Origin: Botryllus schlosseri
Lineage: Eukaryota
NCBI GenBank assembly: GCA_051294905.1
Contig: CM119372.1
Coordinates: 1,116,001-1,180,000, forward strand
Direction of reading: 5' to 3'
DNA: 64,000 nucleotides
In this document: positions 18,546 to 57,936 of the stretch, in pieces
How the letters are laid out: each line of letters starts with the position of its first letter
How positions within the stretch are numbered: the first letter of the stretch is position 1
Program-made: the position numbers and the translations under genes
Notes under the pieces: model-generated
Seen by the model: the letters and a program-made list of their open reading frames with translations, nothing else
Databases searched by the model: none
What the model was told of the DNA's origin: nothing

Positions 18546-19308
18546 GAGCTTCTTGGAGGTACAGAACTTCAATATATAATTGAATAGTTTACTCATATTG
18601 AAATGAACCCGAATATTTTCGGCTGACACTCGTCAGGGGTAATCGGCAGCAATTAGTAGAGACTTGGAAAGAACATTGTATATCGACAATCGTATCACAA
18701 AATATTTGGTCACCAGCATGAAATTTCGAATGAGAGAGCGTTCAATGTACTAATCCCAGGTGGTACACGAACTCCTGTTGACAGAGTTTGGGTTGGTGTA
18801 TTTTGATAACAGTCGACTACAAGGCACACAAATGGAAGTGTGAACGGCCCCTCCCAATAACGCGAAATCTGTCGTCTCGTAATGCACGTGCACGCTCGGT
18901 GAAAAGCTCACCCTTAACTCATCCACTCAAGCTTGATGCTGAGGGATCAAAGACTATTAATTCTGCAATCGGCAAACATCTGTTGGATAATCCGATTTGT
19001 GCGAATAATTATCGAGACGACAGATTTCGCGAGGAGAGGGGCCATTCACACTTCCATTTGTGTGCCTTGGGGTCGACTTTTATCAAAATACACCAACCGA
19101 AACTCTGTCAAGAAGAGTTCGTGTACCACCTGGGATTAGTACATTGAACGCTCTCTCATTCGAAATTTCATGCTGGTGACCAAATATTTTGTGATACGAT
19201 TGTCGATATACAATGTTCTTTCCAAATCTCTACTCATTGCTGACGATGACCCCTGACTAGTGTCAGCCGAAAATATTCGGGTTCATTCCAATATGAATAT
19301 ACTATTCA
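18546..19308. mobile_element. Penelope-like element 3' fragment with inverted terminal copy
   Basis: ORF 18788-19147 ends SAIGKHLLDNPICANNYRDDRF...HFHLCALGSTFIKIHQPKLCQEEFVYHL, like the C-terminus of a PLE GIY-YIG endonuclease; ~18576-18878 is inverted relative to ~19013-19308. Confidence 0.75.
18607..18640 (-). ncRNA. Minimal type I hammerhead ribozyme motif (Penelope-associated)
   Basis: Minus strand reads ACCC-CTGACGA-G TGTCAGC C-GAAA-ATAT-TC-GGGT. Confidence 0.65.
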
Positions 19309-21919
19309 GACATAAAAGAGGAAACTAGAAATTGCCAAATTTATGTATTCGTTCCATTTCGGTCACGGCCTCGAAAAATTCAATGACTTTTTTACCTCGG
19401 AAATCAAAAGCTCATTAATAGTACAACCCACGCGAGCCTGTCCTGTCCAACTATCATGTGTGGAAACACAATGCTCTATCAAGAATACGCCTATGCCGGG
19501 CCACGACATATAGAACAGTATTTCGACAGGTGGTGCATGTCCGTCCAGTCCACATTCAAGTCCAGATACAAACTGTTTCTACTGAATGAAAACTAGTCAG
19601 CGCTCGAGATTTCCGGGCCAATATCTGACATATCCAACTTGCCTTCCGACATATGCCACCTTATTCTGGTCGCCTGCCTTTTTATGTACTAATATGACTT
19701 CTTATCCAGCGTACAGGCCAAGTCGTTTCGCCACTCCCTATCTTTCATTATATGGCAATTTTGTGGTGTTATTATCTCATGAAAATTTCAATAATACGAC
19801 TGAGTGACTGGTCCTGGAGATACCAATTTCAGGTCTACATATAGATGTTGGCGGCTTGATGCTGACAGTTGCATCATGAGTCTGTCAGCGTCAAACGATA
19901 ACTTTTATGAGAAATACATAAGAAAAAAGTGCTCACGTTGACAATCCGAGGATGCGAAAATCCGACCTGCTTCATAACAGATTGACAAGATCAGAATATA
20001 GCAATTCATCGCCGTCTAATATATCGTATGTAGGATTATAATAAAAGAAAATATCAAATGTCCTGTTCTATACGGCCACGAGACAAAAGATTCATCTCGA
20101 AATCAAAACATAAAACGGTATACCGATAGAGAATTGAAATTCCTCGCCGAGAAGCGTGAAACATTATCCCACATCATGAATAATGGTCGACGTCACGACC
20201 CCATTATAAGGTGTTCATGCCTTCCTTAACTAAATATCTGACTCCTGCTATCCGACTGGTAAACATACACACGGCGAGCAACCTTCGCCCAAAGATAGTT
20301 GGCGAGAATGAATTAAACTCCTAATCTTCAGTAGAGTCAAATTGTTATTACAATACAATGCATATGAAGACGACAGATTACAGATAACAGAATCGTGCAA
20401 AATGAAGAATTGGATACCTAATAGGCTACAAGGCCTAGATTATTATATTATAATTGTGGTTTTGCGTGATTCTTCGTCACCTGGTTGGTTTGTTGCGTCA
20501 CGTTGTTCCATTTTAGATTAACTTATTACGATTACGAGATACTACGAATTCCGTACGTGTGGTCGCTAGTTAGGACAGAGAAAATAGGTTTGATCAGCAG
20601 TTATATTCTCAACCTTCTTCATATCATTTCATCTGATGGGAACATTATCAACTTCAAATACCCTCATTTCAAAAAGTAATACTATTGTTGCTCGGAGTAA
20701 TAAATAAAAAATATATATAAAATGAAATCAGAATCTGCATTTGAGCGTGCGTTTCAAGTATAATTATGGACAAAGCTGATTCTGCTCTTCTGCCAACAAC
20801 ATGTCGTTTAATGTTCGGACACTGTAATGAAATCGATTGATATTTACAATGTCTCCAACTCTCCACTTCAGCGAACTCTTGCTTTTTGCGGTTCGTTTTC
20901 TTGTGTACCTTGAGTCGGCATTGCTGTACTTAGTACAGCAAATAACAAATAATGTTCTAACTCACTTCTTCAATAAAATTTCAAAATCGTCTTCTTTTGC
21001 TTGGTATCTACAAACAATTTTTACTGAATCAATACTAGTCAGCCCTCTACAGTTTACCGGACCACGACCTGGCAATACGATCTCGCCTTTCAGCACATGC
21101 CACTTTTTCACGTGTCCTTCTATATTATCTTATTTTACTTTTCATTCAGTGTGCAACCGTGCATGCCTTCGTTTTTTATATCGCCAAGGCCATGTGTCTG
21201 ATTTCGAAGACTACTCCAAGTCGTTTCGACACCTTCCTATCTTTCATTGCATCGCAGTCTTGTGGTGTATTGAAATGATGAAATTGTTAGCAATCAATTG
21301 AATGGAATAGAATCTCACGTGACTTTACAACCTTATCCCGTTCAACTAGTAGACTATATAGAAACAAGGGGAGTGGAACGTTTACTATAAACGGGCAAGA
21401 TAATTAAGGCTGGATGGGTGAAACCACGCGTCGCACGTTTGTACTATAGGACCGGAAACAATGATTCAAATACTTGCATCTGAACTGAGTATTAATTCTA
21501 ATGATTCGAGTACGGTATTGATAGTTGTTTTCTCCGAGTACTGAAATTATACGCTCCTTGTCACTAAGAATTAATTAATCAACGAGAATTATAGTTTCGA
21601 TACTATTTTTCAATTTGGAATGCTGTAAATTTCGATAGGTCAATCACAGCATACGGAAAATACAGTACAAAGCTACGCACGTTAGTAGAAATGAAATATC
21701 TCTGAAGTCTTGGTCAATCCACAGCATTGTATCAAAGTGCAATGAAGTAGCTGTGTGACCGAAAATGTGCCAAGTAGTAATAGACAGAGTATCGCCATGC
21801 GGACCAATGGGCTTAGAGTATTTAATCACGTGACATCTCTTAGCCAATCAGAACGCAGAACATTATGTGCGTGTTTCCAATACGAGAGAGGTTTTGGTTG
21901 TGTGAGAGATAGCATAGTT

Positions 21920-22489
21920 CCAGTTCAGTAACGCTGAGATATTATTACATCATTATTGCGTAAGTTGATTACCTTCATTATGATTGCGTATTGCAGTTGA
22001 AGCATGTCCAGTAATGATTACGTCATTATGATTGCGTAGTTGATGACCTTAGTTATTACGAGAGCGGCTTTGCTTGGTTCCAGTAACGCTGAGATATGAT
22101 TACGTCATTATTGCGTAAGTTGATCGCCTTATTTGTTATTGTAGTTGAACCAAGTGCAAGGCAATATATAACGTGTAATATTTATTACATGATTATTCGC
22201 TGTACGCTGTAGATCGAATATGTCTGAGATTACTGCTAATGATATATACGTCATAATGAATCGGATTGACCCGATAAACTGGTATAGGTTCGCACGTGAA
22301 AAACGTAAGTTGATCGCCTTATTTGTTATTGCAGTTGAACCAAGTGCAAGACAATATATATAACGTGTAATATTTATTACATGATTATTCGCTGTACGCT
22401 ATAGATTGAATATGTCCAAGATTACTGCTAATGATATATACGTCATAATGGATCGATTTGACCCGATGAACTGGTATAGGTTTGCACGT
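21920..22489. repeat. Subterminal tandem repeats (short ATTACGTCATTA/TTGCGTA units and a ~190-bp direct duplication); mirrored at ~39073-39642
   Basis: ~22114-22298 is repeated at ~22304-22489; TACGTCAT recurs several times. Confidence 0.8.
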
Positions 22490-22552
22490 CCCACGTGAAC
22501 ACTTGCTCATTGGAACTTAAGCCCAACGCCTTAACCACTCGGCCAACCCAGT
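22490..22552 (-). pseudogene. Truncated tRNA-Leu(UAA), left-arm copy
   Basis: Reverse complement of 39010-39072. Confidence 0.75.
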
Positions 22553-24046
22553 AGTCATTTACGGCATTTAGCCTCAGCTATGCAACTAGTATTTAGAGAT
22601 AGCAGTGATATCCACCGAGTCATTTACGTTTTTGATATTATAGAGTATACGATTGAATCGCTACGAGTAACGCACTGTTATCTAACTCATTGGGGAATAG
22701 ATTTTTCAATGGAGTATTTAGAGCTAGCAATGCTGTATGGGATCCACTAAGTTCGAACAGCTGCGTTTTGTTATTGTTGAGTATCGCACAGTTGTCATTA
22801 GGGAATAGATTTTCAACGGTTTAGATACGCTTAGTAGATAAACTGCGATTATGCCTTGATTAAGCCTGCCTCTTTCTGGATGTTTTGTGATGTGAAAAAT
22901 GGCTCTGAGATCATGGCTGAAAAGTACCCACTATCATTTGCCGGAAAAACTGTTGTCGTAAAATTTGGAGATAAACTTTACGATCCGTCAGTAGAAGCGT
23001 TGAATAGTCATGGTCGTACACTCTTAGCGAAAAGAGTGGTTATACACACCCCAAAAGGTGGTACACGAAAACAGAACTTACGTAACCCTGCCGGTGTATA
23101 TGACCAGATTCACCCCCTTCCTTGCGGTGTACATCGGATATTTCACCCTACCCATTAGAATTGATAGGGGTTCAATTTCAATATATACACCCTACTTGAT
23201 ATCCTGTATCTTCTTCCAAATGGCACACTATTGCAAATACACAGTCTTGATTGCATATATTCGATATCAATTGAACCATAATAACATAAAATGGAAACAT
23301 ATTTCGTGAAATAACAAAAACAGAGATCCCAGCGACGGAGAAAAAAATTCACTGAAAATACTGCTCGAAGAACATCGCCCATGTAATATCGGGAAGTCGC
23401 CTCCTCCAGGTTTTCTCAAAACACTCTTGTACGGCGAAGGTTGAGTCACTTTTTTCAGCAAGAACTTGTGGCATCATCCTGAAATCAAAATGCATATTCA
23501 CAACCCAATTAACAGGCACATATGTTAACATTCATAACTTAACGAAAGACCACATAAATACAAGCCGTTACGAAGTATATATATTTTCACAAAGTACTTA
23601 CAAAAAATCAGATGTTTCACTTGCTAAGGCATTGCAGCACAGACTGTGGCCCGATAGGGTGAACTTACCGCTATAGGAAACATATTCACACACGATCACT
23701 GTACGTGTGGGCAATTAGGCATCGACAAGATGGAAATTTATGGATAGTTTTCATGAAAACCGCCTGTAACAGGCAGACTTGGACAACTAGAAAACGTTCC
23801 CTTTTTCCAAATTAGATTGGAATTAGATTACAACTACAAGTTTTTTTTTCGAATTAGAGTAGAATTAAAATTATAGCTACACAGTTTGAAATTAGATTAA
23901 AATTATAATTCTAGCTAACAGTTTTTTTTTTCAAATTAGATTAGAATTAGAATTACTCAAATCGCGAAAAGTTGAACCAAACTCCGTTAATATCAAATCT
24001 TAGTTCATCTTATGAGCATGAGAATAGCAAATGTCTGTACACTGTA

Positions 24047-24696
24047 CAGTAGGGGTGTTCAAAAATGACTTTTTCTTCCAAATTCTATTGGCTACTTGAT
24101 AACATCGTTAGGTTACCTAATTGAAGCCTGCACACCAGATTTTATTCGATTCCAACCAGTAGCCGCATTGCTACAGGAGAAGAAAGTTTTTTATTTATTA
24201 TATGAAAATGAATAAAAAAAAGATTAAAAATTTTCTGTTCACCCCATTAAATTGTTAGGTTGTCTATAGAAACAATGCTCAACCGATTTGGCTCAATTCC
24301 AACCAGTGGAAGCGGAGTTATCGGCGTCGCAAAATTTTGGATTTGAATAAAATAGTATTTACGGTGACCGATTCTTTAATCATTTATTACAATTGTGCCC
24401 ACCGTAAATACTAATTTAGTCAAATCCAAATTTTTCGACTGGTTCGAATTGAGTCAAATTTGGTGGGCATCGTTTCTATAGACAACCTTACAATTTCGTG
24501 GGTGAACAGAAAATTTCGAATTTTTTTTACTAATTTTTAAATAATAAATAAAAAACTTTCTTCTCCTGTAGCAATGCGGCTACTGGTTGGAATTGAACCA
24601 AATTTGGTGTGTAGGCTTCAATTCGGTAATCTAACAATTTTATCAAGTAGCCAGTAGAATTTGAGAATAAGAAGTCATTTTTAACACCCCTACTGT
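24047..24696. mobile_element. Palindromic MITE within the arm (mirror ~36864-37513)
   Basis: CAGTAGGGGTGTT...AACACCCCTACTG flanked by TA, with long internal inverted arms. Confidence 0.7.
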
Positions 24697-25907
24697 ACAG
24701 CAAGCTTGGCTTGTTTCGCACTATACAGTTCTCCTGTAGCATTTCCAGGAAAACCAGACATTAGATTAGAATTAAAATTAGAGCATAGAAAGATTTCATA
24801 CATTCGATTAGAATTGGAATTAGAGCATAGACATTGCGCATTACGCAACGCTCAGCGTTGGATGAATATTCTGTTTAGAGATAAATTTGCAATAAAACGT
24901 ACATTTCGATCACATCATTTTTATGCTTGGGAGATATTATTAACTGTACATGTGTATTTGATTGTGTAAAATGTGTTATAGAAGTCAGTCGACGGAAGTG
25001 AATAGACAAGTCTGAACATGTATATTACAGCATGTTAGAGATAGATTGTGCAATAACCGTTTTCGCTGAGTCATAAAACAAAACAAAATGGGAAGTAGGA
25101 GTGATTTGCTAGTTTGACGCACGTGAAATCGATATCATTATAGCGTTCATTTCATAAAAAGTCAATTTTGACTTGCATAAATCATCCTCGAGACTACTCA
25201 AGGGTTAAATTACACTCAAAAGCTACGCAAGACGCTAATTTAGTATTCTAGAACTACTGAATTTTTTCGAAATCTACAACTAGAACTAGAATTACTCATT
25301 TTTCAATATCCGTAACTAAAACTAGCTTTTCCAAATTATAAAAACCTTGATCAATGTGTATGACAGCTTTGGGTGTAAATCAAGAAGTAAGCATAAAATA
25401 GGTGGCTACTATACTCGATAATGTTACATTGAATTCAACATCTTTATAACGAAACCGCTTGGAGATTGCGTTTAGCACAGTGCGATATCGCTCAAATATT
25501 CCATTAGCATCTCATCGTAAGGAGTCAGACTCGAGTCACGATTTTCTGATAACGTTCATTGTAATTTTGAAATCTGTGGTTAACAACACTTTAATATTTT
25601 CAAATCCAAATCCTGTTCCTGCGGGAATCTTATCGGATATATTCGCATTGGGCATTACGCAACGTTCAGCGTTGGATGAATATTCTGTTTAGAGATAAAT
25701 TTGTAATAAAACGTACATTTCGACCACATCATTTTTATGCTTGAGAGATATTATTAACTGCACATGTGTATTTGATTGTGTAAAATGTGTTATAAAAGTC
25801 AGTCGACGGAAGTGAATAAACAAGTCTGATGTACACCTACAATCTACATGACTATACATTATGCTTAAATAATTATACAATTGAATAGTATATTCATATT
25901 GAAATGA

Positions 25908-25941
25908 ACCCGAATATTTTCGGCTGACACTCGTCAGGGGT
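25908..25941 (-). ncRNA. Minimal hammerhead ribozyme motif, left arm
   Basis: Mirror of 35619-35652. Confidence 0.65.
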
Positions 25942-26426
25942 AATCGTCAGCAACTAGTAGAGAATTGGAACGAACATTGTATATCAACAATCGCATCACA
26001 AAATAGGTACCAATAGCTGTTGGGATCAATAACAGTTCAAACAGGGATCCGAATACGCTTCCGAATATACCTTCGACTGTTATTTCCGATGCATTAGCTT
26101 GCGAATGTAATCTAATATCAGGTTGTTTGTCAGCCTTAAATTCAGTGACGTAAATATTCTTGTTTTGACACCGCTGTCTAAATGTCATAAATTACCCCAC
26201 TCGCCTCACGTGCATCCACCAAACAATACCTTCGCTAATTAGTATTAGTATTGTTCCACGCATTAGCTCGCAAATGTAGTCTAATATTAGGTGTTTTGTC
26301 AGCCTTGACGTTTCACAATATCGGAGTGAATATTAGCGTTATAATTCATTAAGTTGTAGTAGGCAACTGTAATAGCATCTGTATTGCATCCGGTTTCTAT
26401 GCATCGGATATCGAGGGCTCAGTTGG

Positions 26427-27004
26427 ACTATAGATGACTAACCTACGGATAGATACGCAAGTCGCGTCGTTACGCTCCGGCAAGCAGTTACACTTGTTGC
26501 TGAGCAATCCAAAAGCAGCATAATTGGAGGAGGTATAGCTTGCGGCCCGAGGGCTGAAATGTAATGGAACTGGTCTTAATCGAGAGCTACTGCCTCACTG
26601 ATTCCGAAAATACAAATTAAAATCGTGCCGGGATATGGAACCACCTCAAAACAGCCCTCAAAGTCTGAAAATCGGCATTGTTCCAACAATGGCACCACCG
26701 CAACAGGATGAACATAACAATGGCCAATTTCGTCAAGCGATTGTTCAGAACAATGCCGATTTTCAGACTTTGAGGGATGGTTTGACATGGTTCCATTTCC
26801 TGACAAGATTTTAATTTGTATTCTCAGAATCAGTGCGACAGTAGCTCTCGATTAAGACCAATTTCAATAAATTTCACCCCTCAGGTCGCAAGTTGTGACA
26901 CCACCAATTATGCTGCTTTTAGATTGCTGAGCAATAAGTGTAACTGCTTGCCGGAGCGTAACGACGGGACTTGCGTATCTATCCGTAGGTTAGTAATCTA
27001 TAGT
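26427..27004. mobile_element. Palindromic MITE with ~270-bp arms (mirror ~34556-35133)
   Basis: ACTATAGATGACTAACCTACGGATAGATACGCAAG...CTTGCGTATCTATCCGTAGGTTAGTAATCTATAGT. Confidence 0.7.
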
Positions 27005-27204
27005 TTGACCACACCTGCTCTAAACCATAACCATAACAACTTGAGTAAGTACTGTCACTAGGCAAACCCTAGCAGAGTTATGCTCAAATTATATCAAATA
27101 TTGCATGGAATATGGCAAATGAACACGCTAAGTATTATCAAGTGAAGGAAAACGAACGCCTAATTCCCTCTAGATACATATTTATTCGGAAAATATCCCC
27201 TTAC

Positions 27205-29514
27205 CGGGTGAGTACAGTTGCTTTCTCAAGGTCTTCCTATCTTCCCCACTCAAGCGCGGTAAGACTAGTTTGACTTCGCGGCATTCAGGATTATATCTCA
27301 CGAAGCTCTGAATGGAATTCACGTATTCCACGTCGACTATCGTTCTGTTGCTATCACTGAGGTCGATTGCCTTTAGCTGTTCATTGAATAATAGGCGATT
27401 TAGATCAATTTAAAAAATACAGAAACGAACTGCATCGCTACATCGGGATCTACTATTGAGCAGAAAGATCTTACTGTAGCGCATCGCTTTCCCGTCTCTT
27501 CGCTCAGATTCCTGATTTGCATGGAAAGCATCTTGCAATTACTCAGATTAAATTCTTCCACACGGGAATTGCACAGGACTTTAGTTAGTGTTTTGTAGCA
27601 GGATGAAATGCCAGGATTTCTACTTAAATCCAGCGAATGCAGCTAAAACATGGTGTAATGTTCAAATATTTTACGAGACTACAAACGACTCGGCACCTGT
27701 AATAGATTAGTCATAATATTATTTATCAACAGTTGAGCAATTTTTGCGATTTCTGCTCCTAATAGCAAAACTGATGCAACACCGAAGACAATAATGAAGC
27801 TCGAAAGGTTATTGAAGAAACCATCTAAACTAGCTTTAAAATGAATGAACGATTGAAAAAACCTCTTGCTTAGAAGCAGTGATAGTATTTATTTTCAGAT
27901 GTGATCATAAACACTTTATTGATGATAAAAGTTCTATCGATCGATGAAATGTCATGCTTGAATATGACTAAAACTCACATAAGCATGACACTGTGATTGA
28001 TTATTTCAGTTAGAAAACATAACGGATCTTGTTCAAATGATCACCTCATGAATTCCGAGACCTTTATTTAATGAGATTAGTGAGTCTTCGTCCAATTCGC
28101 AAGCTGAAAGTCGAACGTTTTTCGTGTTATGCTTTCTTACAAAGCATCCAACTTCTTTCAAACCTGTCGGTTCCATATCCGTATTATAACTCAGATCAAG
28201 GTTTTCGACCTACAAATACAGTAATTTATTTCAAAATGACACACAAAACTATAGAAACGAGTGAGTACCTCGATAGAAGCAAAACTTTCAAAAGCGCGCA
28301 TTTCCTCGGGTGTAAGGTCACACCCCTTCATGATAAGAGTAACCGCTTTGTCTTTACAAAGTAAGGCAGGCAGCGCGGTCATACACTCTTCATCCAGCTG
28401 ATTGTAGCTGATGTCAAGATATTGGAGCTGAACAAATATAGGAAACTGTCAATTTACGATCAGCATTGATCAGATATAAAACATTTCAAACTGATAACAG
28501 AAAAAATGTTGATTAGCCACTCACGTCATAATATACGCGAAATGTGCTAAGATTAAACTAGAATTTGCTCTCTCCATCCATCTCCGCACAATCGCTCATA
28601 CAGAATGTGATCATTAACGACTGAACCCAGCAATAATCGCGCATACCTTACTGTTTTTGAGCTGTAGAGCAACGAAATCTTTTGACTGCAAATGCGAGTT
28701 CACAAGTGACAAATAGGTTAGATCGTTCGAAATAATAGTCGCGAGTTGCGTAAAGTTAATGTTTTCCCCGTAGCTGAGATTGAGGTTTCGTAATTTCACC
28801 TATAGGAATGAGGTATTAGGAAATCTCACTTCGAGAGGTTCTATACTAGATTAGCGCCTAGCTTTTCCCATCATCAATACCTGATGCCGCCTGATAAGTT
28901 GATCCAAAATGATTAGAAAATCTTCGGATCCATCACTTTCTTCCAGATTGAGCTCCGTCGAACCACACTCCTTCATCAACTCGCATATTACTGGGAGGAG
29001 TTTTTCAATGTCGTCGTGTGCTGTAACGCTGAGTTTTCTTATTTCGACCTGAACGAGCGCAAAACTTAACGCATAAAACGCTAAATGAGCTATGAACAGT
29101 TTAACACTGATCAACTTTGGCTATAGCCTATCTAATAAGGCTATTGAGACTGATTCCTATACAAGTAGCAATTGAGCATTGTTCGCTACGTTACCTTCAA
29201 TTCTCGCCTTAACACATTAGTAATAGGGAACAACGCGATTACGATGAAAGTTTTTTTAAAGTCGTATCTGAATATTATACAGATAACATACTTATATTGA
29301 ACGTGAATTTATAATGATCAGTGACTACGAGTGGAATGTGTGAAGGCGTTTACCACAAATTCAAATCCACGAATTTTATCCAGTAGTATCTTTACGAGGT
29401 TTTCATTGAGATCGCATTGACGAAATTCTAACTCATACACGCGACATTGCTGAATAAGACCATTCGCGATATTATGTATATCCAATTCAGTCGTAGTTTG
29501 GTGAAAGAGCCCAT
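27205..29514 (-). pseudogene. 5'-truncated spliced LRR gene segment, left-arm copy
   Basis: Exons 29514-29354, 29048-28881, 28799-28647, 28427-28269, 28209-28045, 27642-27475, 27376-27205; mirror of the right-arm exons. Confidence 0.75.
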
Positions 29515-31310
29515 GATCATGATCATGATGAAGTGAATATTCCTTATGGGCTCTTTCACCAAACTACGACTGAATTGGATATACATAATATCGCGAATGG
29601 TCTTATTCAGCAATGTCGCGTGTATGAGTTAGAATTTCGTCAATGCGATCTCAATGAAAACCTCGTAAAGATACTACTGGATAAAATTCGTGGATTTGAA
29701 TTTGTGGTAAACGCCTTCACACATTCCACTCGTAGTCACTGATCATTATAAATTCACGTTCAATATAAGTATGTTATCTGTATAATATTCAGATCAGACA
29801 TGGGGTAATCGCGATTAGTAATCGTAATCGATTACGACGATTACAGCATTTTGAAGTAATCGTAATCGCAATCGATTACATTCGAAAAAAATCCGAAGTA
29901 ATCGTAATCGTAATCGACTACTTCCCATATTTAATCGATTTTTTTGTGAAAGAACGATTACTTTTTGTTTGTACAAGGACTATGACATAAACTGAATATT
30001 CGTGAACAAGAATGAGATAATATACCAGGTCAGCGGTAGCACAAACGTCTGTTTTCAAACGCCACTGACTCATTATTACGTCAGAAGTATTAGCTCCGCT
30101 CGTCATTGCGTATGAAGTATCCAAACATAGTAAACAGACATGCGACGGACATTAGTAGTGTGATTTTAAGAACAACTCCCGTGGTGTATATCAGGTTATC
30201 AATACACTAGAGAAGTCCCTACCTCGCAGCAGGATATTGATCACCACTCTGCCTATAGTTTCAAATAGTAACTTATGTATTGATGTTTGGTTGTGCTTAG
30301 TTAAACGCAGTTTACCGTTGCTGCTTGGCGAGCAGGAGGCCTACGTACGCACGTGCACCTCACAAAGATTCGGAATTTTGTATACTCGTCGAATAAAACA
30401 TTGCAGTTTCCACAACGAAGCATTACAAATAAACAGCTGCTGATATATATCATAACCGAGCCGTGCTTAGCCGTTTCTCGTAATGGCAGCTCGCTCTATA
30501 TGTATTAAGTTGAAGGCAGAATTTTTATGTTCACTATATCTTATTCTCATATAACTACTTGAAACGGGCGTAAATCGTTATTTCACAGTTCATTACTCAG
30601 CATTTGGACCTGCCGCCATAACCATCCGCTTATATAGCTTGACATGTTAGCGTGGGTTTTAGCTAGAATCAGCAATTCAGCCAATTCAGCCACAACAGCA
30701 ATTCGTCCCCCTGTCCAACCGTTGGTCAATTTTCAAAACTGAATTTCGTCAATAATATTGGTAATTGCATTATATTAATATTCATTTATAACCTCTCTCA
30801 GCCCCGAGTGTCAGATTTACCTCTAGAGCTGGGGCATGTAATTCATAATCATAGCATCTGGTATGTTGTTATAATTACTTTATTGTATGTTGTTAATTCG
30901 CGACCTCCAGTCTGTTGTATAATCAAAAGATATTGTACTCGCCCAAACGTAGCAGACTAAAAGAATATCTCTCGTGAGACGCACATAAAAATTGTCATGA
31001 CTTTATTCCTTTGTGGGTGCGCCGGGTGGCATTTGCATTTTGGGCCCAGATTGGAAGGACAGGAGTAGGCCTACCCACGCCCACCCAGCGCGACTATTGC
31101 CAATGGACGAATACCCTAAGTTTCGGCCATGTTATTTCTTTGGTATCACATCCCGTGGAGTTGCGTGTTGGCCGAAGCTGCATATGTCTTTTGGTGTGTT
31201 GTGGGATCGTGGCGCGGTAATAACCGGATCCGAAACGCCTGTTCCCATAAAATAGCCCATGTATGTTTTTCTTGAGGGGAAGAGGTATGCATTCCAGCTA
31301 TCTACTGGAG

Positions 31311-31784
31311 CAGGGGTCACCAACCGTTTTGAAACAAAAAGCTACTTATTGTGTAGTGTGTAGGCCTACTGATTATTGCGACGACCGATGAATTACAACT
31401 TAGTCCCGCCGTTTATCCGGGTTCAGTTGGATTTCTTTATTTAGAGTAAGACAATCAGAGCACTGGGCCGGGTTTCCGCCCCTTACCAAGAACAAAAAAG
31501 CTCACTCGCCGGGACTCACACCAGCTATTCCGGGTTCAGTTGCGTTGCTGCAGTGCGCGCCGAAGCGCCAATCTCCGCGTCGAGACTCGGGAATATTAAC
31601 TATAGATTCGCGTGGGCGAAGACAAGCAATGCCCCGAGTGACTGCGATCGTATGTTCCTTGGGGTCGGCCGACCCATGTTCAACTGTTGCTCATATGAAA
31701 CCAGCTTCAACTTTCAAATCTCTTATTTGGATATTTGCTACAGCGACCGCGGGCGACTCATTTGGTCCGCGTTGGTGACCCCTG
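31311..31784. mobile_element. hAT-type MITE carrying 28S rDNA fragments
   Basis: TIR CAGGGGTCACCAAC...GTTGGTGACCCCTG; imperfect TSD TACTGGAG/TACTAGAT. Confidence 0.75.
31395..31748 (-). pseudogene. Degraded 28S rRNA fragments (two non-contiguous LSU segments)
   Basis: TCCCGCCGTTTA...TCAGAGCACTGGGC and GACCCATGTTCAACTGTTGCTCATATGAAACC...ATATTTGCTAC match the antisense of conserved eukaryotic LSU core sequence (recognised from memory). Confidence 0.8.
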
Positions 31785-34700
31785 TACTAGATACTTTTGA
31801 ATCGCAAAGCTCGAAGAACTTTTTCAAAAATTAATTAAATTCTCGAAAATACTCTATAATTTATGTTGGTTTACGAAAAACTGTTGAGTCCCCTTCGAGC
31901 ACGCTCCCCACCCTATTAAGGAACTTGGGATGCGGCAGGTAAAGACCTGGCAATAATGCAAATCGTTGGGTGCAATAAATCATCCACTATAAAGTTGGGC
32001 AATTGGTATATTATGACGTGATAAGCAAATGACGCATGATGTATGAAGACAGTTGATATCTCATTAGGCCTTTTCATCGCAATCCTTGTATTGTCTACCA
32101 ACATATCATTTAAGAAGCAAAACAAATGTAATCGTGGGTAATCGTGATTACTTTTCCAATGTAATCGTAATCGTAATCGACTACTTCCTGATTTTGCTGT
32201 AATCGTAATCGTAATCGTAATCGCGTGATTCCGAAGTAATCGTAATCGCAATCGATTACATTCATGAAGTAATCACCCCATGTCTGATTCAGATACGACT
32301 TTAAAAAAACTTTCATCGTAATCGCGTTGTTCCCTATTACTAATGTGTTAAGGCGAGAATTGAAGGTAACGTAGCGAACAATGCTCAATTGCTACTTGTG
32401 TAGGAATCAGTCTCAATAGCCTTATTAGATAGGCTATAGCCAAAGTTGATCAGTGTTAAACTGTTCATAGCTCATTTAGCGTTTTATGCGTTAAGTTTTG
32501 CGCTCGTTCAGGTCGAAATAAGAAAACTCAGCGTTACAGCACACGACGACATTGAAAAACTCCTCCCAGTAATATGCGAGTTGATGAAGGAGTGTGGTTC
32601 GACGGAGCTCAATCTGGAAGAAAGTGATGGATCCGAAGATTTTCTAATCATTTTGGATCAACTTATCAGGCGGCATCAGGTATTGATGATGGGAAAAGCT
32701 AGGCGCTAATCTAGTATAGAACCTCTCGAAGTGAGATTTCCTAATACCTCATTCCTATAGGTGAAATTACGAAACCTCAATCTCAGCTACGGGGAAAACA
32801 TTAACTTTACGCAACTCGCGACTATTATTTCGAACGATCTAACCTATTTGTCACTTGTGAACTCGCATTTGCAGTCAAAAGATTTCGTTGCTCTACAGCT
32901 CAAAAACAGTAAGGTATGCGCGATTATTGCTGGGTTCAGTCGTTAATGATCACATTCTGTATGAGCGATTGTGCGGAGATGGATGGAGAGAGCAAATTCT
33001 AGTTTAATCTTAGCACATTTCGCGTATATTATGACGTGAGTGGCTAATCAACATTTTTTCTGTTATCAGTTTGAAATGTTTTATATCTGATCAATGCTGA
33101 TCGTAAATTGACAGTTTCCTATATTTGTTCAGCTCCAATATCTTGACATCAGCTACAATCAGCTGGATGAAGAGTGTATGACCGCGCTGCCTGCCTTACT
33201 TTGTAAAGACAAAGCGGTTACTCTTATCATGAAGGGGTGTGACCTTACACCCGAGGAAATGCGCGCTTTTGAAAGTTTTGCTTCTATCGAGGTACTCACT
33301 CGTTTCTATAGTTTTGTGTGTCATTTTGAAATAAATTACTGTATTTGTAGGTCGAAAACCTTGATCTGAGTTATAATACGGATATGGAACCGACAGGTTT
33401 GAAAGAAGTTGGATGCTTTGTAAGAAAGCATAACACGAAAAACGTTCGACTTTCAGCTTGCGAATTGGACGAAGACTCACTAATCTCATTAAATAAAGGT
33501 CTCGGAATTCATGAGGTGATCATTTGAACAAGATCCGTTATGTTTTCTAACTGAAATAATCAATCACAGTGTCATGCTTATGTGAGTTTTAGTCATATTC
33601 AAGCATGACATTTCATCGATCGATAGAACTTTTATCATCAATAAAGTGTTTATGATCACATCTGAAAATAAATACTATCACTGCTTCTAAGCAAGAGGTT
33701 TTTTCAATCGTTCATTCATTTTAAAGCTAGTTTAGATGGTTTCTTCAATAACCTTTCGAGCTTCATTATTGTCTTCGGTGTTGCATCAGTTTTGCTATTA
33801 GGAGCAGAAATCGCAAAAATTGCTCAACTGTTGATAAATAATATTATGACTAATCTATTACAGGTGCCGAGTCGTTTGTAGTCTCGTAAAATATTTGAAC
33901 ATTACACCATGTTTTAGCTGCATTCGCTGGATTTAAGTAGAAATCCTGGCATTTCATCCTGCTACAAAACACTAACTAAAGTCCTGTGCAATTCCCGTGT
34001 GGAAGAATTTAATCTGAGTAATTGCAAGATGCTTTCCATGCAAATCAGGAATCTGAGCGAAGAGACGGGAAAGCGATGCGCTACAGTAAGATCTTTCTGC
34101 TTAATAGTAGATCCCGATGTAGCGATGCAGTTCGTTTCTGTATTTTTTAAATTGATCTAAATCGCCTATTATTCAATGAACAGCTAAAGGCAATCGACCT
34201 CAGTGATAGCAACAGAACGATAGTCGACGTGGAATACGTGAATTCCATTCAGAGCTTCGTGAGATATAATCCTGAATGCCGCGAAGTCAAACTAGTCTTA
34301 CCGCGCTTGAGTGGGGAAGATAGGAAGACCTTGAGAAAGCAACTGTACTCACCCGGTAAGGGGATATTTTCCGAATAAATATGTATCTAGAGGGAATTAG
34401 GCGTTCGTTTTCCTTCACTTGATAATACTTAGCGTGTTCATTTGCCATATTCCATGCAATATTTGATATAATTTGAGCATAACTCTGCTAGGGTTTGCCT
34501 AGTGACAGTACTTACTCAAGTTGTTATGGTTATGGTTTAGAGCAGGTGTGGTCAAACTATAGATTACTAACCTACGGATAGATACGCAAGTCCCGTCGTT
34601 ACGCTCCGGCAAGCAGTTACACTTATTGCTCAGCAATCTAAAAGCAGCATAATTGGTGGTGTCACAACTTGCGACCTGAGGGGTGAAATTTATTGAAATT

Positions 34701-35618
34701 GGTCTTAATCGAGAGCTACTGTCGCACTGATTCTGAGAATACAAATTAAAATCTTGTCAGGAAATGGAACCATGTCAAACCATCCCTCAAAGTCTGAAAA
34801 TCGGCATTGTTCTGAACAATCGCTTGACGAAATTGGCCATTGTTATGTTCATCCTGTTGCGGTGGTGCCATTGTTGGAACAATGCCGATTTTCAGACTTT
34901 GAGGGCTGTTTTGAGGTGGTTCCATATCCCGGCACGATTTTAATTTGTATTTTCGGAATCAGTGAGGCAGTAGCTCTCGATTAAGACCAGTTCCATTACA
35001 TTTCAGCCCTCGGGCCGCAAGCTATACCTCCTCCAATTATGCTGCTTTTGGATTGCTCAGCAACAAGTGTAACTGCTTGCCGGAGCGTAACGACGCGACT
35101 TGCGTATCTATCCGTAGGTTAGTCATCTATAGTCCAACTGAGCCCTCGATATCCGATGCATAGAAACCGGATGCAATACAGGTGCTATTACAGTTGCCTA
35201 CTACAACTTAATGAATTATAACGCTAATATTCACTCCGCTATTGTGGAACGTCAAGGCTGACAAAACACCTAATATTAGACTACATTTGCGAGCTAATGC
35301 GTGGAACAATACTAATACTAATTAGCGAAGGTATTGTTTGGTGGATGCACGTGAGGCGAGTGGGGTAATTTATGACATTTAGACAGCGGTGTCAAAACAA
35401 GAATATTTACGTCACTGAATTTAAGGCTGACAAACAACCTGATATTAGATTACATTCGCAAGCTAATGCATCGGAAATAACAGTCGAAGGTATATTCGGA
35501 AGCGTATTCGGATCCCTGTTTGAACTGTTATTGATCCCAACAGCTATTGGTACCTATTTTGTGATGCGATTGTTGATATACAATGTTCGTTCCAATTCTC
35601 TACTAGTTGCTGACGATT

Positions 35619-35652
35619 ACCCCTGACGAGTGTCAGCCGAAAATATTCGGGT
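35619..35652 (+). ncRNA. Minimal type I hammerhead ribozyme motif (Penelope-associated)
   Basis: ACCC-CTGACGA-GTGTCAGCC-GAAA-ATAT-TC-GGGT: stem I ACCC/GGGT, intact core, palindromic stem III, UUC cleavage triplet. Confidence 0.65.
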
Positions 35653-38600
35653 TCATTTCAATATGAATATACTATTCAATTGTATAATTATTTAAGCATA
35701 ATGTATAGTCATGTAGATTGTAGGTGTACATCAGACTTGTTTATTCACTTCCGTCGACTGACTTTTATAACACATTTTACACAATCAAATACACATGTGC
35801 AGTTAATAATATCTCTCAAGCATAAAAATGATGTGGTCGAAATGTACGTTTTATTACAAATTTATCTCTAAACAGAATATTCATCCAACGCTGAACGTTG
35901 CGTAATGCCCAATGCGAATATATCCGATAAGATTCCCGCAGGAACAGGATTTGGATTTGAAAATATTAAAGTGTTGTTAACCACAGATTTCAAAATTGCA
36001 ATGAACGTTATCAGAAAATCGTGACTCGAGTCTGACTCCTTACGATGAGATGCTAATGGAATATTTGAGCGATATCGCACTGTGCTAAACGCAATCTCCA
36101 AGCGGTTTCGTTATAAAGATGTTGAATTCAATGTAACATTATCGAGTATAGTAGCCACCTATTTTATGCTTACTTCTTGATTTACACCCAAAGCTGTCAT
36201 ACACATTGATCAAGGTTTTTATAATTTGGAAAAGCTAGTTTTAGTTACGGATATTGAAAAATGAGTAATTCTAGTTCTAGTTGTAGATTTCGAAAAAATT
36301 CAGTAGTTCTAGAATACTAAATTAGCGTCTTGCGTAGCTTTTGAGTGTAATTTAACCCTTGAGTAGTCTCGAGGATGATTTATGCAAGTCAAAATTGACT
36401 TTTTATGAAATGAACGCTATAATGATATCGATTTCACGTGCGTCAAACTAGCAAATCACTCCTACTTCCCATTTTGTTTTGTTTTATGACTCAGCGAAAA
36501 CGGTTATTGCACAATCTATCTCTAACATGCTGTAATATACATGTTCAGACTTGTCTATTCACTTCCGTCGACTGACTTCTATAACACATTTTACACAATC
36601 AAATACACATGTACAGTTAATAATATCTCCCAAGCATAAAAATGATGTGATCGAAATGTACGTTTTATTGCAAATTTATCTCTAAACAGAATATTCATCC
36701 AACGCTGAGCGTTGCGTAATGCGCAATGTCTATGCTCTAATTCCAATTCTAATCGAATGTATGAAATCTTTCTATGCTCTAATTTTAATTCTAATCTAAT
36801 GTCTGGTTTTCCTGGAAATGCTACAGGAGAACTGTATAGTGCGAAACAAGCCAAGCTTGCTGTACAGTAGGGGTGTTAAAAATGACTTCTTATTCTCAAA
36901 TTCTACTGGCTACTTGATAAAATTGTTAGATTACCGAATTGAAGCCTACACACCAAATTTGGTTCAATTCCAACCAGTAGCTGCATTGCTACAGGAGAAG
37001 AAAGTTTTTTATTTATTATTTAAAAATTAGTAAAAAAAATTCGAAATTTTCTGTTCACCCACGAAATTGTAAGGTTGTCTATAGAAACGATGCCCACCAA
37101 ATTTGACTCAATTCGAACCAGTCGAAAAATTTGGATTTGACTAAATTAGTATTTACGGTGGGCACAATGGTAATAAATGATTAAAGAATCGGTCACCGTA
37201 AATACTATTTTATTCAAATCCAAAATTTTGCGACGCCGATAACTCCGCTTCCACTGGTTGGAATTGAGCCAAATCGGTTGAGCATTGTTTCTATAGACAA
37301 CCTAACAATTTAATGGGGTGAACAGAAAATTTTTAATCTTTTTTTTATTCATTTTCATATAATAAATAAAAAACTTTCTTCTCCTGTAGCAATGCGGCTA
37401 CTGGTTGGAATCGAATAAAATCTGGTGTGCAGGCTTCAATTAGGTAACCTAACGATGTTATCAAGTAGCCAATAGAATTTGGAAGAAAAAGTCATTTTTG
37501 AACACCCCTACTGTACAGTGTACAGACATTTGCTATTCTCATGCTCATAAGATGAACTAAGATTTGATATTAACGGAGTTTGGTTCAACTTTTCGCGATT
37601 TGAGTAATTCTAATTCTAATCTAATTTGAAAAAAAAAAAACTGTTAGCTAGAATTATAATTTTAATCTAATTTCAAACTGTGTAGCTATAATTTTAATTC
37701 TACTCTAATTCGAAAAAAAAACTTGTAGTTGTAATCTAATTCCAATCTAATTTGGAAAAAGGGAACGTTTTCTAGTTGTCCAAGTCTGCCTGTTACAGGC
37801 GGTTTTCATGAAAACTATCCATAAATTTCCATCTTGTCGATGCCTAATTGCCCACACGTACAGTGATCGTGTGTGAATATGTTTCCTATAGCGGTAAGTT
37901 CACCCTATCGGGCCACAGTCTGTGCTGCAATGCCTTAGCAAGTGAAACATCTGATTTTTTGTAAGTACTTTGTGAAAATATATATACTTCGTAACGGCTT
38001 CTATTTATGTGGTCTTTCGTTAAGTTATGCATGTTAACATATGTGCCTGTTAATTGGGTTGTGAATATGCATTTTGATTTCAGGATGATGCCACAAGTTC
38101 TTGCTGAAGAAAGTGACTCAACCTTCGCCGTACAAGAGTGTTTTGAGAAAACCTGGAGGAGGCGACTTCCCGATATTACATGGGCGATGTTCTTCGAGCA
38201 GTATTTTCAGTGAATTTTTTTCTCCGTCGCTGGGATCTCTGTTTTTGTTATTTCACGAAATATGTTTCCATTTTATGTTATTATGGTTCAATTGATATCG
38301 AATATATGCAATCAAGACTGTGTATTTGCAATAGTGTGCCATTTGGAAGAAGATACAGGATATCAGGTAGGGTGTATATATTGAAATTGAACCCCTATCA
38401 ATTCTAATGGGTAGGGTGAAATATCCGATGTACACCGCAAGGAAGGGGGTGAATCTGGTCATATACACCGGCAGGGTTACGTAAGTTCTGTTTTCGTGTA
38501 CCACCTTTTGGGGTGTGTATAACCACTCTTTTCGCTAAGAGTGTACGACCATGACTATTCAACGCTTCTACTGACGGATCGTAAAGTTTATCTCCAAATT

Positions 38601-39009
38601 TTACGACAACAGTTTTTCCGGCAAATGATAGTGGGTACTTTTCAGCCATGATCTCAGAGCCATTTTTCACATCACAAAACATCCAGAAAGAGGCAGGCTT
38701 AATCAAGGCATAATCGCAGTTTATCTACTAAGCGTATCTAAACCGTTGAAAATCTATTCCCTAATGACAACTGTGCGATACTCAACAATAACAAAACGCA
38801 GCTGTTCGAACTTAGTGGATCCCATACAGCATTGCTAGCTCTAAATACTCCATTGAAAAATCTATTCCCCAATGAGTTAGATAACAGTGCGTTACTCGTA
38901 GCGATTCAATCGTATACTCTATAATATCAAAAACGTAAATGACTCGGTGGATATCACTGCTATCTCTAAATACTAGTTGCATAGCTGAGGCTAAATGCCG
39001 TAAATGACT

Positions 39010-39072
39010 ACTGGGTTGGCCGAGTGGTTAAGGCGTTGGGCTTAAGTTCCAATGAGCAAGTGTTCACGTGGG
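39010..39072 (+). pseudogene. Truncated tRNA-Leu(UAA), right-arm copy
   Basis: ACTGGGTTGGCCGAGTGGTTAAGGCGTTGGGCTTAAGTTCCAATGAGCAAGTGTTCACGTGGG: D-arm, TAA anticodon arm and long variable arm present; T-loop and 3' acceptor strand missing. Confidence 0.75.
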
Positions 39073-42000
39073 ACGTGCAAACCTATACCAGTTCATCGGG
39101 TCAAATCGATCCATTATGACGTATATATCATTAGCAGTAATCTTGGACATATTCAATCTATAGCGTACAGCGAATAATCATGTAATAAATATTACACGTT
39201 ATATATATTGTCTTGCACTTGGTTCAACTGCAATAACAAATAAGGCGATCAACTTACGTTTTTCACGTGCGAACCTATACCAGTTTATCGGGTCAATCCG
39301 ATTCATTATGACGTATATATCATTAGCAGTAATCTCAGACATATTCGATCTACAGCGTACAGCGAATAATCATGTAATAAATATTACACGTTATATATTG
39401 CCTTGCACTTGGTTCAACTACAATAACAAATAAGGCGATCAACTTACGCAATAATGACGTAATCATATCTCAGCGTTACTGGAACCAAGCAAAGCCGCTC
39501 TCGTAATAACTAAGGTCATCAACTACGCAATCATAATGACGTAATCATTACTGGACATGCTTCAACTGCAATACGCAATCATAATGAAGGTAATCAACTT
39601 ACGCAATAATGATGTAATAATATCTCAGCGTTACTGAACTGGAACTATGCTATCTCTCACACAACCAAAACCTCTCTCGTATTGGAAACACGCACATAAT
39701 GTTCTGCGTTCTGATTGGCTAAGAGATGTCACGTGATTAAATACTCTAAGCCCATTGGTCCGCATGGCGATACTCTGTCTATTACTACTGTGCCAACTTA
39801 TCTTTATGTGATGTAGAACTGCGAACTGGCATTATGTTCTTTATGGTCGCATGAAATGGTACATATTTGAACTTTCCGCATGAGTGATACTCGAATGCTC
39901 GACTCGACTCGAAGCCCAATAGTCGGTTCAGAATAGAATATCTCATGTAGGCTCGATTCACCCGACCTTAAGTATATAGGCCTACATCGCAGGATTTTTG
40001 AATGGTTGTAGGCGCAAAACCCGATCCGGAAATAGTCGAGGATTGTTTTCGGAATAGGTAACCCAATACCACCCTTCAGAGAATCCAGCGTAAGCATGCA
40101 ATAAGTTTTCGCGAAGCGTGGATTTCTTTTAATGATATCAAACAAATCTGGTCAACTTTCCGGCCCAGCTCCCGAAATACCCGCCGGAGCGTTGCTTCAG
40201 TGTTGATTTACTGTATCCAAGTCGATTTTGCCATATTTTTAACCAAACTCGAAAAAACAGGACAAAATCTCAAAAAAGAGAACATTTGGGCGTCCTCCGA
40301 GGATACTTTCAAAAAAGTCAAAAAAAGAGGACAAATCCTCTTAAGAGGACGCATGGTAACCCTACCTAATATTCCATGTTCATATCTCTACATCTCATCC
40401 AATTCCGAATGATGATCGCATGAAAACTCTCTCGGATTTATCCGAATTTCAACTTTTCTCCTGTTCTTTTACATGAAAGAGTCGACGACTTTCAGCGGTC
40501 AGACTTGGAAAACTAGACAATTCTCGTTGTCTTTTAGAGCGAAATCCAGGTTTCCTTGCTCTAACTGTAATTCTAATCTAAATTCTGGTTTTCCTGAAAA
40601 TGCTGCATGCGAACCGTACAGTGCGAGATGAGCAAAATCTTGCTGTACAGACATTTGACATTCTCATGCTTTAAGAACTGAACCTATACTAATTTCCCAG
40701 TTTTAATGCATTAAATAATTCAAATTCTAACCTAATTTGGAAAAACTGTGTAGCTATAATTTCAATTGTAATCCAATTTATAAAAAACTGCGTAGCTATA
40801 TTATTCTAATTTTAATCTAATTTATAAAAACTTAAAACTATCCAGTGGTTCATTTCTGTTAGCGCCCGCGCTGTGAGCTGAGTTAAGTATTCCTGAATAA
40901 TGGCTCACGCCACTTTTGAGAGGCCTTGATTGGACCTGCGAAGATTGCGAGAATAAAGCATTGGTTTCCGCATATATGCTGTCGCGCGACCGTGTAGGTT
41001 GGTAATCCTATAGGATGAGATATGACTTCGTTACTACAATTTCGTTCTGCATCCTCACTCGATTTACTTGATGCATACTGCGGAACTAAATGAACTCGCA
41101 TTCTGAACGCTATAAATTAGTTAATAGCCAAATTGCCGAGCCTGTTGTACCGTGAGAGCTAAATGACTAACTCCGCGCAATAGCTATAGTCGAATCGTGT
41201 AACTCAACTCCAATTGTTACCTTACGTGTCTGTTAGTTTGGGACACGCGACATGTTGTAATCAGATACGGGGAGGCTTTCAAACACGACAAAGACTAGTA
41301 CGCAAATCAGTTAATTGGATCAGCGAGGACATCGCGCTCATTCCGCACAAGTAATAACACCGGTGTGATTATAATATTCCGATTCCAATGGCGGCCTGCG
41401 TGAAAATAATGCCCCGCCATGAACGTCATATGCCACAACGTATCCTGCAACATAGCACTAGCGACATTTTTCAACTTTTTTTTGTTGCTTTTCTGGAACG
41501 AATAATTGTGTTAATCTAATTTGACGATGCTGATTCCGGATTTGCCGTCAGAACTCACTCATCACATCACAACTTTTCGCCAAAATCGAATAAAAATTTT
41601 ACTCAAAAAACGGCTGTATTAAGTGCCCTTATGCCCGTTTACGTTAAATACGCCGTAATTAAATACACCACAATTAAATACGCCGTAGCGTGACGGTTTG
41701 CACAAGTCAGAATGTCCGAGTTGTTAATGGAGTTGCTGCCGAAAGGCAGTATAGCGGTAAAAACACAAAACACGATGCCCGCATGCAAGACTTCCGCAAA
41801 TGGATCCACCAGATTTCTTGTCGTGGTTTTAACAATGTATCATATTGTTGCAAAGCAATTTAGTAAACAGGACATTCTGGTGTTTTACGATAGAATCTTC
41901 CTCGGTAATATGTCAAAGGCGGGCGGGTAGTGCATTAGCCTCTCCTTTTCTGTGGCAAATACCGGTAATGCTTGCACCCGAAGGAGCAGTTGCAAATCTT

Positions 42001-48606: not shown

Positions 48607-57936
<9,330 letters not shown>

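Follow-up and report, generated by a model that had tools for sequence, protein, structure and literature searches.

The subject of this report is a palindromic mobile element in a stretch of the Botryllus schlosseri genome (assembly GCA_051294905.1, contig CM119372.1, positions 1,116,001 to 1,180,000 of the forward strand; these 64,000 nucleotides are called the window below) and the leucine-rich repeat (LRR) exons that it carries in both arms. The donor of these exons was a host NACHT-LRR gene of the NOD-like receptor (NLR) type with two LRR blocks, and its second block passed into the element as genomic DNA. As one joint explanation, we consider it probable that the element family carries a stand-alone gene derived from this NLR, with its own ATG and a selected frame, on a carrier with Polinton ends, that the window holds a truncated copy, and that the family is mobilised in trans. 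Contig labels (C1 to C16 and others) refer to the genome that was searched (G000; 495.5 Mb, 219 contigs), and positions without a contig label are those of the window.

Each arm holds seven open exons, bounded by GT and AG and directed outward from the apex; all joins from E0 to E7 are in phase 0, and E1 to E7 are mirrored exactly on the minus strand at 27205-29048 (Table 1). LxxLDLSxN motifs are present, and LxxLxLxxN alternates with LxxLxLxxC in symmetric exons of two repeats, as in LRRs of the ribonuclease inhibitor (RI) type. These coordinates and motifs bear out the preliminary description of this DNA, which had counted seven open exons per arm, the complete ones 153-172 nt long, joined in phase 0 and carrying LxxLDLSxN motifs. 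It had also called symmetric exons of about two LRR units a trait of RI-like and NLR genes, and this agrees with our motif reading and with the accessible text of Hoss et al. 2019 (PMC6642158), where the LRR regions of RI-type NLRs are exon-modular with symmetric two-LRR exons. The window's exons differ from that model in being 153-172 nt rather than exactly 171 (51-57 residues, mostly fewer than the canonical 57), and the element has no NACHT or effector domain. When single exons were scanned with Pfam, LRR matches were returned for 2/8, with E values of 0.004-0.035, under the cut-off, and a profile built from 16 natural exons finds LRR proteins in the PDB, including the LRR chains of NLRP1. 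The exon set is not a product of chance, because the same exons with the same lengths occur in a host NLR gene. The open stretch at 33696-33863 was considered as an eighth exon and rejected; an RNA-type contig leaves it out, and in the 89% subfamily it is broken.

The host gene was found by a screen that compared 150 genome matches to E7 (from 165 candidates) with 94 scored NACHT loci (from 224 candidates). In two pairs a NACHT preceded E7, as in a gene, at a distance of no more than 40 kb. One of them, at C16:8.63 Mb, is the donor gene; the locus has no inverted repeat, and in it a NACHT exon (Pfam NACHT, E 2e-18, 67 bits) is followed by a first LRR block, an acidic linker exon, and E0 to E7. 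All seven exons are present there in order and with identical lengths, at 50-75% amino-acid identity, and the DNA aligns with the element through the introns (67.5% identity over 2,541 columns), a similarity that sets in roughly 8 nt ahead of the E0 acceptor. With 1 match among 4 candidates, the linker exon is single-copy; it ends in a phase-1 donor that is compatible with the phase-1 acceptor of E0, and phases are compatible from the first LRR block through the linker to E0. A public protein of 1,198 aa (P0001) has the NACHT domain, the first block, and counterparts of E0 to E7 in one chain, colinear with C16. The best named relative of the donor NACHT exon, with 27% identity, is a protein from an ascidian. 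Consequently, the claim that the exons are the 3' part of an immune-type receptor gene, transferred as DNA together with the introns, holds on the C16 exons, the intron-wide alignment and the upstream NACHT, and the proposed search for a parent with such a domain upstream led to the C16 lineage.

In a tree of E1 to E7 that kept all nine rows, the six element rows group in a single clade (support 100/98) that is sister to C16, and the two remaining host rows fall outside the element and C16. Because the tree places the element clade beside C16, and with P0001 as further support, the direction of transfer is read as host to element. C16 is the closest host relative found, which need not make it the exact donor, and in its E7 a stop lies two codons ahead of the donor site. 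A second host paralogue at C2:3.68 Mb (L046, C2:3680501-3687000) has the same seven exons at 34-56% identity, with no NACHT in the 9.5 kb upstream. None of the element copies that we read has a NACHT between the apex and E0; the element's gene is NLR-derived and is not itself an NLR.

The elements could in principle also serve as donors for exon shuffling, since a palindrome offers a sense LRR block in either orientation and an upstream NACHT gene could splice into it. The E0 acceptor is kept, the exons are symmetric, and NACHT loci number at least 94 in the genome (94 scored among 224 candidates). One element (C1:39553853-39571908) lies 2.5 kb downstream of a NACHT exon (C1:39574387-39574893) on the strand of its left arm. 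This element, with no LRR exons in the 1.5 kb flank on either side, may have inserted into an NLR gene and is the only candidate for shuffling. However, a scored NACHT stands within 40 kb upstream of only 2/150 E7 matches, one being the donor gene, and a single such neighbour is close to chance (about 0.2 expected, by a rough estimate). No chimeric join was seen in the four sequencing runs that were aligned, and for C16 transfer from element to host is excluded by the tree and P0001. The idea that the cassette supplies exons for shuffling is thus left unsupported, and we regard it as highly improbable.

The cassette is widespread. The 150 E7 matches group into 83 clusters distributed over 17 contigs, and 110 of the matches form 55 outward-facing pairs, leaving 40 unpaired. 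In copies that retain their centre, E0 has 70 codons and begins with an ATG located 10 nt past the old acceptor, where C16 has ACA. This ATG was read in 16/20 young arms and in both older subfamilies that were fetched (three subfamilies in all); the four young arms in which it was not read comprise the two arms of the window and two in which it was not found in the stretch covered. E0 matches run at full length from residue 1 in 120/150 cases and, by hand count, are stop-free in 119/120, an alignment to residue 1 being no proof of an ATG; host E0 matches begin at residues 2-15. The frame that starts at this ATG is open for 399-405 residues and encodes LRRs only, and E1 to E7 are stop-free in 20/20 young arms, one of which has a damaged acceptor. 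Comparison with a C10 copy shows that the native loop, the two spacers, and the two ATGs were lost in the window's apex deletion, so that the window holds a derivative of the family truncated at its 5' end. The earlier statement that the cassette has neither an N-terminal domain nor a promoter therefore applies to the window's copy, with its apex deletion of about 655 bp, and fails for most copies read, which have an ATG of their own. Together with constraint on the frame and splicing, that ATG suggests that the family carries a working LRR-only gene of about 400 residues and not an inert half-gene.

Some copies are rearranged near the start of the gene. In one sub-lineage (L012:330-1300, L019, L020, L008), a tandem duplication located between the apex and E0 has placed a broken E0 stub before the intact exon. 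Comparable stubs stand beside the apices of elements that have lost the remaining gene.

Selection on the protein was assessed at two depths. Between subfamilies, dN/dS is 0.52, 0.30, and 0.33 (p from 3e-3 to 1e-14), and the synonymous excess holds after correction for transition bias. Over 1,194 nt of exon there are 0 indels between subfamilies, and introns of similar length have 10-27 gaps. Among 11 young elements, 18 variants are synonymous and 24 non-synonymous (p 0.005, and 0.012 at the measured kappa of 2). The frame has been kept by purifying selection through several subfamilies. The picture of a start-less passenger, which the preliminary description had drawn, does not survive for the family, most copies read having an ATG of their own and a gene that is under purifying selection and spliced.

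To look at expression, 4/24 listed runs were aligned onto an intact copy; for two of the runs (X1 and X2) the RNA label is a guess, and no listed run that holds the cassette is recorded as RNA. Raw reads joined E2 to E3 (2 reads) and E3 to E4 (7 reads). One contig of a guessed-RNA run joins E2-E3-E4-E6 and leaves E7 at its donor for 30 letters that equal 38085-38114 exactly, and a second contig joins E1 to E2. The 3' exon reached in this way, at 38084, contributes one residue before a stop and sits in a high-copy repeat. Mapping of RNA junctions, as had been proposed earlier, thus revealed splice joins in the family, at a low level. The alleles of the four-exon contig match exactly none of the 13 arms compared, and the deepest contigs in the read alignment are explained by the host paralogue at C2:3.68 Mb. 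Two further runs (X11 and X13), labelled as a second organism, contain 55-67% of the cassette's words, which may reflect a related species, a mixed sample, or transfer.

Transcription through the apex was previously suggested to give a long hairpin RNA directed against the parent family; the resulting double-stranded RNA would be cut into small RNAs that silence the NLR genes. The inverted-repeat arms are near-perfect, so a read-through transcript would fold, and 145/1,021 of the 21-mers match the host gene with up to two mismatches. Exact host matches, however, are limited to 6/1,021, and read depth at the apex is 0 in 4/4 runs, in which overall depth is low. The genes face outward, and transcription driven from the apex would yield sense RNA on both arms. 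Moreover, an RNA role does not need the constraint seen on amino acids and frame. This reading lacks support and is, in our judgement, quite improbable.

Several observations weigh against the explanation that we favour, in which a selected NLR-derived gene is carried by an element mobilised in trans. The single arm read from the 89% group has a stop in E3, and 15 E0 stubs stand beside apices at loci without an E7 match; from these stubs it follows that some lineages lost the gene and still spread, and that the gene is dispensable in cis for spread. The selection signal among young elements fades at kappa of 4 or more (p 0.058 at kappa 4). Conservation of the concave face was tried as a sign of mimicry and rejected, since it is significant against C16 and no less so when two host genes are compared. 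The level of expression is very low (24 reads in 12.9 million and 51 in 10.0 million, mostly 90-95% alike). The four-exon contig retains the E6-E7 intron, three reads are polyadenylated within the E4-E6 intron, and neither an E0-E1 join nor a 5' end was seen in the 4 runs aligned. The family is spliced at a low level, and the reads are not assignable to the window's copy. A search of public proteins with E0 gave 0 matches among 7 candidates, and one with E3 gave 25 proteins, at 100% only an unspliced piece of 63 aa. Two elements (C11 14.12 Mb and C1 21.49 Mb), which provide 4/18 of the arms compared below, have a common arm asymmetry. Finally, mobilisation in trans by a helper is proposed solely from the shared ends and the dispersed insertions.

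The low expression and blank protein searches, and the loss or breakage of the gene in some lineages, would also be expected if the cassette were passive cargo with borrowed selection. Constraint would then come from a few copies that benefit the host, or from an unseen LRR-only host paralogue that reseeds the element, and most copies would be inert. Unpaired E7 matches (40/150, mostly unexamined) and the variation of apex loops and spacers among subfamilies are compatible with this as well. Against reseeding, the element rows are monophyletic with respect to C16, and the two closest subfamilies, which have the apex stem and spacer in common, still show dN/dS of 0.52 and 0 exon indels. The 11 young elements are also skewed to synonymous change. 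We consider passive cargo unlikely on this evidence and retain the selected, NLR-derived gene as the better account.

The carrier was identified from its ends. The window's element, which begins with AGTAGT and finishes with ACTACT, has arms that are 99.8% identical (13 differences over 7,503 nt, plus 249 nt beside the centre). A genome search with these ends gave 40 scored loci from 175 candidates, many in palindromic pairs; 20 end loci were read, 16 of which paired into 8 end pairs, and 4 had no partner among those read. The flanking 6-bp duplication agrees at 6/6 positions in four pairs, 5/6 in two, and 4/6 in one, and the eighth pair is 6/6 by direct reading. A target duplication of 8 bp with G...C ends was rejected, as the base adjacent to the terminus is A in 9/9 ends and only the 6-bp window matches. 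According to the available text of Barreat and Katzourakis 2021 (PMC8097293), Mavericks have end motifs of the (AG)n/(AGT)n type and a 6-bp target duplication. About 1 Mb off, a full-length Polinton (C2:2211650-2229478) is bounded by the same ends and flanked by a 6-bp duplication of its own, and it encodes an rve-chromo integrase, a BIR (inhibitor-of-apoptosis) protein, and a ubiquitin-conjugating enzyme. The BIR gene and the ubiquitin-conjugating-enzyme gene lie at L047:7333-7737 and L048:2908-3378 (C2:2.21-2.23 Mb). A Polinton frame of 1,314 aa has PolB motifs B and C by eye and is not recognised by Pfam or PDB searches; a genome search with Pfam DNA_pol_B_2 gave 0/9 candidates, with control genomes equally blank, and is therefore uninformative. 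A capsid-like protein, so labelled from size and position and without a Pfam hit, has 12/95 scored matches that are at least 96% identical and stop-free. The element shares its ends with this young, intact Polinton family of the same genome. Polinton genes for polymerase, integrase, ATPase, capsid, and protease were not found in the window's element, where the longest open frame is 129 aa, and the element is not an autonomous Polinton.

With arms 99.8% identical and a 31-nt junction at the centre unchecked against DNA reads, a fold-back artefact of sequencing or assembly has to be considered. An artefact would not be expected to have target duplications at both ends, an insertion in one arm with a duplication of its own, or 13 differences between the arms, nor would it recur as 55 pairs, with matches over 17 contigs and a subfamily structure. 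We give it next to no credence.

In the family, the arms meet at a native apex, a GC-rich stem with a strand-biased loop of 30-45 nt (151 candidates genome-wide, 40 scored), which falls exactly at the midpoint of several elements and may be a dedicated turn-around or resolution signal. Loops were folded at L004:876-956, L041:1376-1456, L042:7672-7750, and L044:408-484; three of these four loops have a strong strand bias and look like degenerate telomere repeats, with G-runs on one strand, and the fourth differs. Nine elements with both arms have 0-3 arm differences in about 1,868 nt, and the nearest other element differs by 6-36 for 14/18 arms. From the common asymmetry of the C11 14.12 Mb and C1 21.49 Mb elements it follows that a jump need not involve rebuilding both arms from one; homogenisation is frequent but does not accompany each jump. 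Loci that resemble concatemers, with two apices or four alternating arms, occur at C11:8548706-8565499, C10:21038112-21056252, C9:13236809-13255656, C4:27229361-27254959, and C5:22360451-22372379.

The following course of events would account for these features. A non-autonomous Polinton satellite captured the second LRR block of the host NLR at an exon edge, as genomic DNA, and in its lineage the first exon begins with a start codon, absent in C16, just past the old acceptor. Polinton polymerase and integrase would copy and integrate the element in trans. A displaced single strand could fold into one long hairpin, and the helper polymerase, in copying through the fold, would keep the arms alike. 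Transcription would run outward from the apex region, and the orphan E0 acceptor may receive a host spliced leader. Hairpin or palindromic deletion derivatives are known from protein-primed linear plasmids, for example F1/F2 of the yeast killer plasmid, and like the window's element these have the same replicon end at both ends, joined by fold-back. They differ in being extrachromosomal and in having no captured host gene, whereas the window's form is integrated with target duplications.

As for function, the LRR-only protein might interfere with host NLR or cell-death signalling, in the manner of a decoy or a dominant-negative, and so benefit the element or its helper. We favour this idea only tentatively, because the protein is under constraint, the donor is an NLR, and the helper has a BIR gene. 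A fuller version, just as speculative, would make the protein the satellite's LRR-only inhibitor of NLR or cell-death signalling, expressed outward from the two arms of a hairpin replicon and selected for protecting cells in which the helper is active. Should the product act on NLR signalling, the family would clearly exemplify a counter-defence gene of true NLR descent carried by an element that depends on Polintons. KSHV (Kaposi's sarcoma-associated herpesvirus) ORF63, an often-cited viral NLR mimic, is judged unlikely to be an NLR homologue in the accessible portion of PMC3437474.

In mobile elements, captured gene fragments tend to be regarded as decaying passengers. Here the donor, the carrier, the helper, and dated subfamilies are found in one genome, and the emergence of a new gene on selfish DNA can be followed from its capture at an exon boundary, through a start codon that the host gene lacks and a long period of purifying selection, to its loss in some lineages. 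There is also a practical consequence for annotation: more than 100 of the genome's LRR exon sets belong to elements as cargo, and including them would overstate the number of immune receptors.

Gene capture by non-autonomous elements and intron-bearing cargo in Mavericks are already known, as far as the accessible texts of PMC8277862 and 10.1101/2022.07.12.499685 go. In the former, Tan et al. 2021 describe Drosophila Ssk-FB4, a foldback-type element that captured a host gene with introns, re-transposed, and is transcribed, its protein being under selection. The window's family resembles Pack-TIR elements and Ssk-FB4 in its non-autonomous carrier, intron-bearing capture, distinct target duplications, transcription, and selection on the protein. 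In contrast, Ssk-FB4, as described in that text, has one near-complete gene with its own upstream region, repeats of about 700 bp, MULE-like duplications of 9-10 bp, and four copies. The window's family has a 3' fragment with a start codon that C16 lacks, doubled in 7.7-kb arms with Polinton-type ends, and comprises at least 55 pairs in several old subfamilies under purifying selection. As in Pack-TIR capture, a host gene with its introns lies in a mobile element with target duplications, and the parent is elsewhere; the 6-bp duplication and Polinton-derived ends are not those of a Pack-MULE (Mutator-like) carrier, which is a cut-and-paste element with terminal inverted repeats and duplications of 9-10 bp. 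The element works like a Pack-TIR and is not a Pack-MULE. Nematode Mavericks carry intron-bearing, host-derived cargo in the available part of Widen et al. (bioRxiv 10.1101/2022.07.12.499685), and the window's element is like a Maverick/Polinton in this cargo, its (AGT)2 ends, and its 6-bp duplication. It differs in being wholly palindromic, with the cargo central and the donor gene identifiable in the same genome. Our literature search, which covered papers outside Repbase and supplements, found no paper on a palindromic Polinton derivative whose cargo is an LRR-only gene of NLR origin under selection.

Table 1. Features of the palindromic element and its cassette, in window coordinates.
Feature	Position	Strand	Remarks
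Whole palindromic mobile element	21773..39789	.	18,017 bp, AGTAGT...ACTACT ends
Left target-site duplication GTGCCA, 6 bp	21767..21772	+	6/6 match
Right target-site duplication GTGCCA, 6 bp	39790..39795	+	6/6 match
Outer ~1.25 kb, left arm	21773..23017	+	mosaic of terminal repeat and internal pieces of the C2:2211650-2229478 Polinton, 84-98% identity
Outer Polinton-derived region, mirror copy	38545..39789	-	from arm alignment and blastn
Deletion junction replacing the family's native apex	29515..29545	.	~655 bp lost relative to the C10 copy
E0 remnant, right arm	29521..29706	+	codons 9-70 of the 70-codon first exon; ATG and acceptor deleted
E0 remnant, left arm	29354..29514	-	codons 16-70
E1, 168 nt, phase 0/0	32512..32679	+	mirror 28881-29048 (-); E1-E2 join in contig X2
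E2, 153 nt	32761..32913	+	mirror 28647-28799 (-); E2-E3 RNA join
E3, 159 nt	33133..33291	+	mirror 28269-28427 (-); E3-E4 RNA join
E4, 165 nt	33351..33515	+	mirror 28045-28209 (-); E4-E6 join in a contig of a guessed-RNA run
E6, 168 nt	33918..34085	+	mirror 27475-27642 (-)
E7, 172 nt, phase-1 donor	34184..34355	+	mirror 27205-27376 (-); stop at 34378 if unspliced
Start of 3' exon, from E7 donor	38084..38114	+	canonical GT..AG, 3.7-kb intron; mirror near 23449-23478 (-)
Later insertion, 2,492 bp, first intron, right arm only	29795..32286	.	short terminal inverted repeats starting CAG

Other mobile sequences were noted in and around the element. The 2,492-bp insertion is flanked by an 8-bp duplication (29787-29794 and 32287-32294), and we take it to be hAT-like by its general features; it has arrays of a 6-bp unit, GTAATC, in subterminal position at both ends and is without a long open frame. 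On the minus strand at 51413-53418, two adjoining open frames of 515 and 167 aa resemble a transposase of the hAT/SPIN type, which could be a helper for this insertion with its 8-bp duplication. Small inverted-repeat elements resembling miniature inverted-repeat transposable elements lie at 26427-27004, 34556-35133, 24042-24700, 36860-37518, and 18581-19308, inside and outside the arms; those within the arms are mirrored, so they were there before the arms last became alike.

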